NCBI GenBank assembly: GCA_937871295.1
Contig: CALMRE010000151.1
Location: 25,754 to 49,753 of the forward strand
From: an uncultured bacterium
GTDB taxonomy: Bacteria > UBP6 > UBA1177 > JAKLFG01
DNA length: 24,000 nt
Direction: 5' to 3'
Under the pieces are notes generated by a model, which was given only the letters and a program-made list of their open reading frames with translations, was not told the DNA's origin and did no database searches. A program made the translations under genes and the position numbers. The first letter of the stretch is position 1. The number at the start of each line of letters is the position of its first letter. Shown piece by piece: positions 1,053 through 4,000 of the stretch.

Positions 1053-4000
1053 CTAATATGCTCGGGTGTTCTCAACCCAACCGATCGAACCGGCCGATCC
1101 GGCGTTGCCCATTGAGGATCCGCCCGCGCCGCCCGCGCCACCGCTTCCACCGGAGTAGTTACTCCCGCTTATCGAAGGAGCGGTGCCGCTGTAGCCGATA
1201 CCGACCGCAGTGCCGCCACAGCCGCCGCCGCCACCGCCACCGTGACCACCGTTCCCACCGTTCCCCCCGGTACCTCCTTGATTGCCACAGAGGAGAGGCA
1301 TCGCTAGTCCAGCGTTTCCTCCGACACCTCCGACACCTCCTTGTCCTCCTGATCCGCCACCGCCACCGTTACCTCCCCGACCACCGTTACCAAGCACTAT
1401 TGAGTTATTCTGCAGCACGACCGCCGAGCCACTTGCCGTCACGAATATCGCAAAACTACCTCCGCCCGCCAAGCCTACTCCGCCACCGGTACCACCACAG
1501 CCGCCTGCCCCACCGCCGCCGCCGTGACCACCAAGCACCTCGTCGAAAGAACCGGTGCTGTAGTCACCGCCGCCGCCGCCGCCGCCGCCGCCGCCACCGC
1601 CACCGGCAACCCCAACGCCACCCATGTTGCCATCACCTCCACGCCAATGACCGGACAAAACCGTTCCGGATGTACTGGAACAACCGGCCCCGGCACCTCC
1701 GTTCGTTCCCAACCCGCCATTTGCTCCCGGATATCCATCCCAGTGAGAATCGGGCACAGAACAGGATGAGGTGTTAATCCGCGTATCGTATCCTCCCTCT
1801 CCGCCGGCACCCGCGCCGATACCGGCACCAACGCTGCCATTCCGAGCACTTGTTCGCGTATTGAAACTCGGCGCACAAGCCGTTCCTCCTCCTTTGCCAC
1901 CTGACGCACCACAGTTACTAACTGCACCATTGTTCAGTTCGAGATTGAACGAAGTGATACACTCTCCGTAGGCTCCGTCGCCATCAGTCGCGTGACGCGA
2001 ATCATAACTTAACGGGTCATCTGTGCGAGTACCGCCGTTGTTGCCCGCCAAACCTGCATTCGCCTGTCCCGCGCTTGCGCCGGGACCTCCCGCCGCACCG
2101 TAAAGAACATTGTTGCGTATCGTGAACTGGTTGTTTGATCCGGTCACATAGACGGCGTAGGAGTTGCCGCCGCTAGCCGTGGCGCTCTGTCCATAGATGA
2201 CGAACCCTTCAAGCACCGTCGCGGCCGTGATGCCGCTCGCATAGATGGTCATCTTATGCGGTTCATGCACCGTATCGTTGCCGCGCACGATGGTCATCGT
2301 GGTCGACAGGTGACGCGACCAGGTATCGGGACGGTAAGCGCCCAGCAGACTCTTACCGTTCACCAGCGTTATCTTCTCTTCATAGGTCCCGTCGGCCACG
2401 AGCAGTTTGGTCCTCCCGGTATCGACCGCCCGCTGAAGAGCGTAGGTTATCGACTTGCAGGGGTAGCGGCCGCCGCCGGTCGTCGTGGGACCGAACCCGC
2501 ACCCCGCCGTATCGAACGCCGTTTCGTCGCTTTCGCTGACGTAGATCGCCGCGGTATCGAGCACGAATTCACAGCCGTCGGCCGGAACGCCGTTCAGATC
2601 GAAATGGATGCTGGTATTACTGCAGGCCATCTTGCATTCGGGCGTACCGGATGCGTCGCACCAACCGTAGGCGTTTGTTTTCGCGTAGATGGTGGTGCAA
2701 TTGGTCTGGCAGTTACCGCAGGCGGTATTCTGGTCGTACTTGCCGGTGCCGCCGTTCAGATACCCTTCATCCACCGTACCGTCGCAGTCGTTGTCGAGAT
2801 AGTCGCACAAATTCTCGGTCGCCTGATAACTGGCGCCGAACTGCACCGCACCGCAGGTCTGCCAACCGCCGCTACACGCTTTTCGCGCACCGACACAGAC
2901 GCCGATAAGCGGACTGGCCGCGCCCACCGGGTTATCGCAGGCGGGGGCATAGTTAGTGAGGGCTTCGTCCACTTCATTGTCGCAATCGTTGTCATAACCG
3001 TCGCACAGCGTCTCAGGCTCATCCTGATAGAGACCGCCCGAATGGACGATGTAGTCGGTCTGCCCGCAGTCGATCCACCCCTGCGCGCCGCCGCACTGTT
3101 TGGTCGTGCCGCCGCAGACGCCGAGCGTTTTTGAACAAGCCGGAGCGGTCGCCGCAACGCCATCGTCGACACCGTTGATACAGTCGTCGTCGATACCGTT
3201 GCACACCTCGGCGGTCGGAGTTCCCTGCACCGCATCACAGACCAGTTCCCAGCCGTCCGACGAACAGGAATAGACCCCGGCCCGCAGACAGGCACCCTGC
3301 CCCGCGAAGCAGAGCGTCCCCTTGCCGTCGAACCCGTCGTCGATGACGGTATTGCAGTCGTCATCCTTGTCGTTACACATCTCGTTGCCGACCAATCCCT
3401 CGACCGCGTTGCACTCGACCCCGTCCTTGCTCGACTTGCAGACGGTGAAGCCGACACTGCGGCATTCGCCGATGCCGACCATGCAGACCTTCTGCAGTTC
3501 AGCCGCGAACGGCTCGTCCACCTGCCCGTTGCAGTCGTTGTCGACGCCGTCGCACAGCGTCTCGGTGCCCTGATATTTGTTATTCCACGCAGTATAGGCG
3601 GCGGCATCGCAATCCAACCAACCCGCCGTCCCGCCGCAGGAACGCTGAGCCCCCTGACAGATACCGTCCTGTTTGGAACAGAGCGGCGGCGCGCCGAGGT
3701 TGTCGTCCATCGTTCCGTTGCAGTTGTCATCCTTACCGTTGCAACTCTCGGTCGCACCGGGATAAATGAGCGCCGAACCTTCGTCGCAGTCCTTTATCGC
3801 GCATTTCGCGCCGACACCCGCCACATCGCCGTCGAGGTTCATACAGCAGACGAAATTGTTGGGGGAACAGCCGGTGCCCAGATAGGCGCCGCCCGCATCG
3901 TAGAGTTCGTTGCAGGTGAACCCGCCGGGGCATTCGGCGCTGGTGGCGCAGGGAAGCAGGCAGAATTTCTCGCCCAGTATCGGCGTGCAGATATCGGTCG

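Follow-up and report, generated by a model that had tools for sequence, protein, structure and literature searches.

Conserved Gly-Gly-X tracts in the head domain of stalked bacterial lipoproteins, with a predicted beta-helix core and a probable polyglycine-II structure

A 24,000-nucleotide stretch of DNA (the window) from an uncultured bacterium (GTDB lineage Bacteria; UBP6; UBA1177; JAKLFG01) was analyzed. It spans positions 25,754 to 49,753 of contig CALMRE010000151.1 in GenBank assembly GCA_937871295.1. Three complete genes, B, C, and D, and a partial fourth, A, are tandem paralogs on its minus strand, and the complete ones encode lipoproteins with a Gly-rich head domain of about 500 residues. 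The original prediction had singled out a tract of eight Gly-Gly-X (GGX) units in these heads as a possible polyglycine-II (PGII) structure. We found that the GGX runs are real and strongly conserved in this undescribed head of bacterial surface lipoproteins. The Gly tracts probably have a PGII-type structure. In the structural model, the tail is a hybrid of beta-helix and Gly tracts and not a free PGII tip. For the proteins as a whole, the best explanation, held with moderate confidence, is a beta-helix with PGII-type excursions, carried on a stalked lipoprotein and serving as a binding platform.

The (GGX)8 tract and its conservation

The translations of B, C, and D were scanned with a regular expression. 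Each contained exactly eight consecutive GGX units at the same relative position, as had been predicted. The tract of B was located exactly where it had been placed. Those of C and D, previously given as about 5497-5575 and about 11444-11523, were found to end at 5568 and 11515, respectively. The flanks quoted for the tract, GGGSFAIFVTAS...LQNNSIVLG, and the second Gly tract behind it were both present in the translation. Gly makes up 36-37% of the Gly-rich 350 residues. When this part was shuffled, a run of at least eight GGX units arose in 1-3 of 200,000 shuffles per paralog, that is, about once per 100,000 tails.

Conservation was analyzed in an alignment of 123 sequences, consisting of the B head and 122 homologs that were 40-67% identical. 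The 24 tract columns contained no indels among the 122 homologs. Gly reached a frequency of at least 0.9 at 13 of the 16 G positions, and the other three (401, 404, and 410) were more relaxed, with Gly at 0.66-0.80 and Ala or Ser otherwise. The X positions were highly variable, with no more than 10% Gly, and the commonest residue at any of them occurred in at most 49 of the 123 rows. Independently of this alignment, translations of GTDB loci had 7-8 GGX units at a constant distance from a GNSYA motif. These results indicated that the tripeptide register is conserved in orthologs.

The same alignment revealed about eight indel-free period-3 Gly tracts per head, each 18-25 residues long. They are located at head residues of about 153-176, 240-256, 274-291, 306-329, 342-364, 391-414, 427-448, and 470-493. 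The tracts, (GGX)8 included, thus carry two or three Gly per triplet, and their Gly register and length are fixed while X residues and loops vary. Both are traits of the polyproline-II (PPII)/PGII class. In tract 1 (391-414), the first four X residues were mostly polar (T/N/D/R/S), and the last five were mostly small or aliphatic (A/V/L). Tract 2 (427-448) has polar X residues (R/K/D, D/N, N/D, and H) followed by a conserved all-Gly run; its paired positions were Gly at 0.96-1.0, without indels.

Conserved all-Gly runs (residues 318-329 and 439-445) adjoin GGX tracts. In known bundles, (X-Gly-Gly)n segments form two-layer PPII sheets with X outside, helices that are fully surrounded by others are all-Gly, and helices tend to be antiparallel (bioRxiv 10.1101/2023.11.25.568672). 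The arrangement of the runs is consistent with this all-Gly-core rule. A conserved all-Gly run upstream of the tract was seen in B (1566-1643, with 13 consecutive Gly), C (5746-5781), and D (11700-11738), with the family consensus NGGGGGGGGAGGG. If the PGII reading is true, this run would form a core helix that is completely buried.

At the DNA level, the tract of B contains only 2-3 local copies of 9-bp units. Any two paralogs share 41-47 of the 72 tract nucleotides and use different synonymous codons for 10-12 of the 16 Gly residues. This low nucleotide identity and the synonymous divergence indicated that the glycines are kept by selection on the protein and not by recent slippage or gene conversion. 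They also bear on the explanation that the tract is a flexible low-complexity spacer generated by codon-repeat slippage. Such a spacer would account for the 9-bp repeats, for an array of 7.7 copies with a 70% match in D, and for the fact that a PDB search with the family profile met only artificial GGS linkers. It is effectively refuted by the family-wide fixed length and register, by the synonymous Gly-codon differences, by the rarity of Gly at X, and by the confident structure prediction described below.

Predicted structure of the head

The B head was modeled by AlphaFold2 (AF2) with the family alignment, and residues 151-500 were modeled alone in a second, independent run. Secondary structure was assigned by DSSP in three states (H, E, and other). 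The whole head had a mean predicted local distance difference test (pLDDT) score of 96.2 and a predicted template modeling score (pTM) of 0.87. Residues 151-500 alone had a pLDDT of 95.9, and every element was reproduced. Coordinates of all elements are given in Table 1.

The N-terminal 152 residues consist of a cap helix (H36-46) and four three-stranded coils, A-D (E50-64, 69-91, 101-121, and 132-152), with pLDDT of 92-98. The Gly/Cys-rich insertion that follows is mostly neither helix nor strand, and its pLDDT is above 90 except for one loop at 75. It contains the first five Gly tracts, and a run of 13 Gly lies in the fourth. Coil 1 has strands E367-374, E380-382, and E385-390, and its F368, F371, P379, and N384 are at least 90% conserved. 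The (GGX)8 tract is "other" in both runs, with a pLDDT of about 98. In the variable loop behind it, gaps occurred at 417-420 in 35-106 of the 123 sequences, and Cys423 was present in 108 of the 123. The second tract is also "other" (pLDDT 95-99). Coil 2 has strands E450-457, E461-463, and E466-471, and its N465 is at least 90% conserved. The third C-terminal tract shows period-3 Gly without indels and is "other" with a pLDDT of about 95-99. Three segments (391-414, 427-448, and 472-493) are therefore predicted, in both runs, to be ordered and neither alpha nor beta.

The core has the features of a right-handed parallel beta-helix, namely three-strand coils of 22-26 residues, an Asn ladder, and an N-terminal cap, in AF2/DSSP and in conservation. 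The ladder residues N149, N384, and N465 are nearly invariant (at least 90%) and occupy matching turns in coils D, 1, and 2. The strands of coil 1 equal those of coil 2 in length (8/3/6), and deletion of the N-terminal beta-helix left these lengths unchanged. Coil D with its tract and coil 1 with its tract are internal repeats (z=7.4). The beta-strand-like character proposed for the tract flanks was borne out, since AF2 places beta-helix strands on both sides. Their proposed resemblance to GGA[ILV]/FxxN repeats was not, as the heads matched no Pfam family at E values up to 10. A disordered tail without conserved register, which had been named as an outcome that would count against a PGII structure, was not what we found: the tail is ordered in AF2, and the register is fixed across the family. 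The free-standing PGII tip suggested originally gave way to the hybrid, in which the Gly tracts lie between the coils of a predicted right-handed beta-helix.

Strands need partners, and DSSP assigns none of the tract residues to a strand. Coils 1 and 2 match each other, and an Asn ladder is present. Direct stacking of coils D, 1, and 2 and the last strand is thus most likely. Conservation with a period of 3 is what a helix with three residues in each turn would show, and it is incompatible with beta-strands, whose residues alternate between inside and outside. An excursion from the stack must return to its origin, which fits antiparallel two-armed hairpins. The two halves of tract 1 (polar, then aliphatic) and of tract 2 (polar, then all-Gly) fit such hairpins as well.

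We therefore weighed the possibility that the Gly tracts are extra solenoid turns, irregular and extended, around the beta-helix axis, so that the head would be a Gly-rich variant of a beta-solenoid. We regard this as unlikely. Tract lengths of 22-24 residues are close to coil lengths of 23-26, one tract follows each beta coil, and right-handed beta-helices are the only structures to which the similarity carries any statistical weight. No tract residue, however, is in a strand or bridge, and coils 1 and 2, with full matching strands, pair together, as they do in the truncated model as well. Direct stacking of D, 1, and 2 is implied by the Asn ladder, conservation has a period of 3 and not 2, and the Gly-rich part alone retrieved no canonical beta-helices with Foldseek.

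It is highly improbable that the monomeric AF2 model is misleading, with tracts that are unstructured alone or become ordered on oligomerization, as in PGII lattices, collagen-like trimers, or matrix fibers. Few experimental Gly-rich PPII templates exist for AF2, and Gly-rich segments may become PPII only upon binding other Gly-rich bundles (PMC13243192). Against such a dependence stand the absence of indels in 122 homologs and the near-invariant Gly in blocks of 22-24 residues bounded by conserved coils and Cys, which are typical of an intramolecular fold. There is also no Pro/Hyp-type G-X-Y pattern, and the two independent predictions agree.

The arrangement we favor, a beta-helix with PGII-type excursions, would be as follows. 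The last coils (D, 1, 2, and the terminal strand) of the right-handed beta-helix would stack on each other, and Gly-rich excursions of 213, 59, and 22 residues between successive coils would leave and return at one corner. These excursions would hold the tracts of strict period-3 Gly (about eight tracts, about 190 residues). The tracts would adopt PGII/PPII helices, probably as antiparallel hairpins with about 10-12 residues per arm. Hydrogen bonds would join the helices in a bundle that packs on or next to the beta-helix. The GGX segments would lie at its periphery, their X residues facing outward or toward a hydrophobic surface, and its interior would hold the all-Gly runs. The strand lengths of 8/3/6, the Asn ladder, and the intervening tracts suggest PPII helices interleaved with beta-solenoid layers, an architecture described for gp38 of phage S16 (bioRxiv 10.1101/2023.11.25.568672).

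Structural comparisons and possible function

The whole head and its Gly-rich part were each searched with Foldseek. The top matches of the whole head were pectin methylesterase, GH87 glucanase, alginate epimerase, RbmB lyase, and phage depolymerase tailspikes, over about 150-170 columns within residues 1-170. These beta-helix matches were all weak and covered the first third only; E was at least 0.05 (best 0.05-0.07), and template modeling scores (TM) did not exceed 0.28 (8TNE_B, probability 1.00, TM 0.20/0.28). A match to 7JJV in this search had E=1 and was dismissed as meaningless. The Gly-rich part retrieved only four PDB chains at E values up to 10, two from 7JJV, one from 9D93 (Qa), and one from 2PNE. 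All four are from entries with experimentally determined Gly-rich PPII bundles. The 7JJV matches had E values of 0.012 and 0.019, with a best TM of 0.08/0.20 and a root-mean-square deviation (rmsd) of 28.6 Å. The 2PNE match had a TM of 0.36, normalized by target, and an rmsd of 17 Å. In 9D93, the tail tip of Bxb1, the PPII bundles have been reported for gp33 and gp29 (PMC13243192); the matched chain Qa may or may not be one of these proteins. The BFVD matches of the Gly-rich part were of the composition type (collagen-like, PE-PGRS-named, and mycobacteriophage minor tail proteins), with TM up to 0.17.

A search against gp38-like and antifreeze PGII folds had been suggested as a check. Its outcome was mixed: among PDB chains, the Gly-rich part retrieved only PPII-bundle proteins, but no fold-level superposition on a solved PPII bundle was obtained from the PDB or the viral library. 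For gp38, neither sequence homology in the PDB sequence searches nor fold homology in Foldseek was detected. The comparison with gp38 and the snow-flea protein was nonetheless apt, given the retrieved set (7JJV, 9D93, and 2PNE) and the interleaving seen in gp38.

Sequence searches were negative. Scanning B, C, and D against NCBIfam gave no match, and the heads alone matched no Pfam family even at E values up to 10, including beta-helix and CAZy-type families. A PDB sequence search with the B head gave only insignificant haemolysin and linker matches.

Several other Gly-rich folds were considered and rejected. The collagen triple helix, already set aside in the original prediction, was rejected because Gly occupies two of three positions, the tract has no Pro and thus no Pro-rich G-X-Y, only eight units are present, they lie between beta coils, and Pfam Collagen was not matched. 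The RTX beta-roll was rejected because the period is 3 and not 9, the tract has no conserved Asp column, and no Pfam match was found. Chlamydial Pmp repeats were rejected on the Pfam result for the heads. PE_PGRS membership was rejected for want of a PE domain or a sequence-family match. An antifreeze role was rejected because the X residues are mixed and the homologs come from diverse, non-cold metagenome-assembled genome (MAG) sources, with habitat taken from locus titles only.

The Foldseek matches of the first 150-170 residues raise the question of whether the head is a carbohydrate-active enzyme, such as a lyase, hydrolase, or esterase of the pectin-lyase fold. The Gly-rich part would then be a mere cap or lid, and the GGX units would have no binding role. 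The near-invariant residues E60, R81, H100, N131, S132, Y133, and D257 would suit an enzyme. We consider this rather unlikely: the enzyme matches are those with E of at least 0.05 and TM of at most 0.28, no CAZy-type Pfam family was matched, and the Gly-rich two thirds of the domain lack an enzyme counterpart.

The favored beta-helix with PGII-type excursions was compared with known systems. The PPII/PGII bundle class has been reviewed as comprising antifreeze proteins (AFPs), Obg, acetone/acetophenone carboxylases, gp38, and ALK/LTK (bioRxiv 10.1101/2023.11.25.568672). S16 gp38 (6F45), with its three-layer PGII "sandwich" tip, resembles the head in having Gly motifs of fixed register with variable segments between them, all-Gly segments beside GXX/GGX ones, and a position at the distal end of a stalk or fiber. 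Its PPII helices are interleaved with beta-solenoid layers, as they probably are in the head. It differs in that there is no sequence homology. The head is about twice as large, starts with a 150-residue beta-helix of the pectin-lyase type, and belongs to a bacterial lipoprotein and not to a phage. The helices of gp38 are also much shorter than the head tracts (22-24 residues).

The springtail and snow-flea AFPs (7JJV and 2PNE/3BOG) are two-layer PPII bundles. They share with the head the GGX/GXX composition (30-34% identity over aligned columns) and disulfide-forming Cys in the Gly-rich region, and they are the only structures besides 9D93 that Foldseek retrieved for the Gly-rich part. With TM of 0.16-0.36 and rmsd of 17-29 Å, they have a different fold. 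These AFPs, of 81-126 aa, stand alone and bind ice through flat faces made of small residues. In the head, X is mixed polar and aliphatic and the tracts are embedded in a predicted beta-helix.

The Gly-rich domain of ALK/LTK (7N00/7NX1) has 14 PPII helices on a beta-sandwich. As proposed for the head, it has PGII excursions from a beta scaffold, an extracellular ligand-binding region, and poly-Gly runs for fully surrounded helices. Unlike the head, it belongs to a metazoan receptor with a TNF-like scaffold and no beta-helix, and it had no Pfam or Foldseek match to the head. Mycobacterial PE_PGRS proteins, for which PGII bundles ("sail" domains) have already been predicted by AlphaFold with high confidence, resemble the head proteins in being bacterial and envelope-associated, with GGX/GGA repeats (PMC13243192). 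The head proteins differ from them in lacking a PE domain, in having a lipid anchor and a Cys-rich stalk, and in having tracts of fixed length between beta coils and not long variable arrays. Pectin-lyase-fold beta-helices (pectin methylesterases and tailspike depolymerases) share the N-terminal cap helix, the three-strand coils of 22-26 residues, and the Asn ladder. They differ in that their matches were weak (E of at least 0.05), no Pfam beta-helix family was matched, and two thirds of the head consists of Gly tracts that have no counterpart in them.

The head probably has a binding or adhesin role, by analogy with gp38, whose conserved Gly motifs provide a rigid support for variable recognition loops (bioRxiv 10.1101/2023.11.25.568672). 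Pointers to a surface-exposed stalk and head are the lipid anchor, the acidic spacer, the disulfide-rich stalk, the C-terminal position of the head, and its many conserved Cys. Further pointers are fusions of the head to immunoglobulin (Ig)-like adhesin domains in other proteins and the tandem paralogs that differ in X residues and loops. The head would stand at the far end of a lipid-anchored stalk of variable length, made of the acidic linker and disulfide-rich MopE repeats. Related heads that vary in their X residues and loops would be displayed by the four tandem paralogs, each at its own distance from the cell. Each head would act as a rigid, compact binding (adhesin or receptor) platform, as the gp38 tip does on S16 fibers. 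We infer that the PGII geometry, the hairpin and bundle topology, the surface exposure, and the binding function are the most likely reading of these data.

Some points weigh against this reading. The PPII-bundle matches had E values of 0.01-5, TM up to 0.36, and rmsd of 17-33 Å, and they were partly driven by composition (30-34% identity to 7JJV). Neither 6F45 (gp38) nor ALK appeared in the Foldseek lists of the whole head or the Gly-rich part. The DSSP assignment was three-state only; the PGII backbone geometry, hydrogen bonding, and helix packing are likely but were deduced from indirect evidence. AF2 confidence on Gly-rich repeats has scant experimental calibration. The near-invariant polar residues listed above, together with W304, could mark an enzyme active site. 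Nothing found here bears directly on function, and the head had no Pfam, NCBIfam, or PDB sequence match.

A more far-reaching reading is tentative, and we would put it at somewhat below even. It holds that the head represents a fold class of its own. In this fold, T3-type excursions between the coils of a right-handed beta-helix would form a natural PGII array that ranks among the largest, and the head would serve as a widespread but undescribed surface recognition module of uncultured Myxococcota-like bacteria. As part of it, the eight or so tracts and about 190 residues would possibly form some 16 antiparallel PPII helices, exceeding the 14 seen in ALK. On the same reading, the tandem paralogs, each with its own stalk height, may present PGII faces whose decoration differs and which recognize prey, kin, or matrix.

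Gly-rich PPII/PGII bundles are a rare, recently recognized architecture that is relevant to protein design. PGII bundles are already known, including a phage case interleaved with a beta-solenoid and the predicted bacterial PE_PGRS; the heads described here form an abundant family that lacks annotation. A conserved, abundant bacterial family that joins such tracts to a beta-helix would extend the class to surface proteins of environmental bacteria and give a natural PGII-on-beta-solenoid example outside phages. It would also help to annotate hundreds of large proteins now called "hypothetical" or "MopE-related" and, as to function, would point to surface receptors of the stalk-and-head kind encoded by arrays of tandem paralogs.

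Distribution, gene array, and stalks

With the B head as query, 526 proteins were retrieved at E values up to 1e-5, and the best of them were 40-55% identical. When 1.84 billion cluster representatives were scanned exhaustively with HMMER, 1666 matched at E values up to 1e-3, 672 at 1e-10, and 239 at 1e-30. The sources were mostly Myxococcota-like metagenome genomes. Among the 150 matches listed, the great majority aligned in one stretch, from head residues of about 1-30 to 480-500, and ended at the protein C-terminus; the parts ahead of the head ranged from none to about 3900 residues. Partners of the head in other proteins were MopE repeats, fn3, Big_9, and cadherin-like domains, and glucodextranase-B with Big_6. 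A PGII-type tip on a lipoprotein stalk had been called unusual for a bacterial surface protein. The domain is indeed undescribed, but it is common in metagenomes, as the 1666 representatives indicate, and PGII has already been predicted for PE_PGRS (PMC13243192). Some homologs, among them P0038 (from a Lentimicrobium MAG), P0050, P0057, P0061, and P0075, carry the precomputed Pfam tag PF26696.1.

GTDB genomes were scanned with an alignment of six sequences. Seventy-six loci were confirmed, the closest being 70-73% identical. They were mostly in Myxococcota MAGs (Myxococcales, Haliangiales, Kofleriaceae, Sandaracinaceae, and Bradymonadales), and a few were in Acidobacteriota, Krumholzibacteriia, Bacteroidales, and others. 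MAG RA.bin96 (JAKLIW010000007.1) contains at least four tandem paralogs of 1269, 1196, 1225, and 1986 aa (L003 91-11212, L001 1615-7575), indicating that the array is a conserved feature and not peculiar to this window. The RelA protein of the window was 94% identical to P0121, 50-75% identical to other MAG proteins, and only 35-38% identical to Myxococcota RelA. By this one protein sequence, the host lineage appears to stand apart from Myxococcota, although the head family is mostly found there.

Table 1. Features of the window, with positions counted from its first nucleotide; head residues are those of B
Feature	Positions	Strand	Description
Partial paralog A	1-1042	-	Signal peptide, lipobox, acidic linker, first Cys-rich modules; open frame leaving the window
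Gene B	1053-4625	-	Lipoprotein of 1190 aa; signal peptide and lipobox Cys, acidic linker, MopE-type stalk, head of about 500 aa
Third C-terminal Gly tract and terminal strand	1056-1142	-	Tract at about residues 472-493, GGAGGAGGSSMGNAGSAGSIG; predicted strand E494-499
Beta-helix coil 2 (predicted)	1143-1211	-	Residues 449-471, TAVGIGYSGTAPSISGSNYSGGS; ladder Asn465
Second tract	1212-1277	-	Residues 427-448, GGTGGNGGNGGHGGGGGGGCGG; four GGX with polar X, then all-Gly run
Variable loop	1278-1313	-	AGLAMPLLCGNQ; predicted one-turn helix (HHH 421-423), conserved Cys423
(GGX)8 of B	1314-1385	-	Head residues 391-414, GGRGGNGGGGGSGGQGGVGGVGGN
Beta-helix coil 1 (predicted)	1386-1463	-	Residues 365-390, GGGSFAIFVTASGSAVVLQNNSIVLG; ladder Asn384
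Gly/Cys-rich insertion	1464-2099	-	Residues 153-364; five period-3 Gly tracts, conserved Cys, Asp, His-Trp
Cap and four right-handed beta-helix coils (predicted)	2100-2555	-	Residues 1-152; IYVS...PCKSI cap; GGNSYAVYV...IRNN, coil D
Gene C	4657-11175	-	2172 aa from ATG, with lipobox; 14 MopE-type stretches, head, extra C-terminal extension
(GGX)8 of C	5497-5568	-	GGTGGKGGNGGIGGVGGNGGDGGI
Gene D	11183-16918	-	1911 aa; 9 MopE-type stretches and the same head domain
(GGX)8 of D	11444-11515	-	GGTGGAGGTGGSGGQGGTGGTGGY
MFS transporter	17507-18808	-	Housekeeping flank (16978-24000)
DapA	20220-21089	-	Housekeeping flank
RelA/SpoT	21099-23402	-	Housekeeping flank
Guanylate kinase	23402-23998	-	Housekeeping flank

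The heads of C and D are 52% and 67% identical to that of B, respectively. Each protein begins with a signal peptide that runs up to a lipobox Cys, as in ...LLVASC of C; the N-terminus of B reads MRKMLILCGALLALFIFAC. The lipobox is followed by a linker of 100-200 residues rich in Asp, Glu, Pro, and Thr. The stalks matched the MopE-type Cys-rich repeat family PF11617, with four stretches in B. The scores were 82 bits for B (E 3.5e-23), 244.6 for C, and 202.5 for D, all above the gathering cut-off of 27. In the acidic linkers (4227-4285, 10686-10914, and 16467-16507), 9-bp repeats encode triplets of the SDS/DQT type; these are true slippage-type low complexity, unlike the Gly tracts.

The mechanical open reading frame of C, with its GTG start at 11280, extends into the 3' end of D. 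A likelier start is the ATG at 11175, from which translation yields MKKHIVIITALLALLLVASC with a lipobox. D ends at 11183, so the gap between C and D is a few bases. In the stalk of C, a tandem repeat of 177 bp in 3.9 copies (or 354 bp in 2.0 copies) with 87-93% identity was found at 8532-9226 on the minus strand. Its units, "...CDGIDNNCAGGVDETWPLKNTACSNG...GIYVCTGDKSGIECNAP", are recent duplicates of MopE-type modules, suggesting that stalk length evolves via module duplication. Beyond the head, C alone adds a short Cys-rich segment and an Ig-like domain (PF16158, N_BRCA1_IG, E 2.4e-7) at 4660-5230 of the window.

A further lipoprotein is divergently placed at 18900-20216 on the plus strand. 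It has a similar acidic linker and three Cys-rich repeats, one of which matched Kazal_2 (E 1.4e-9). This protein may be a surface-anchored protease inhibitor adjoining the paralog array.

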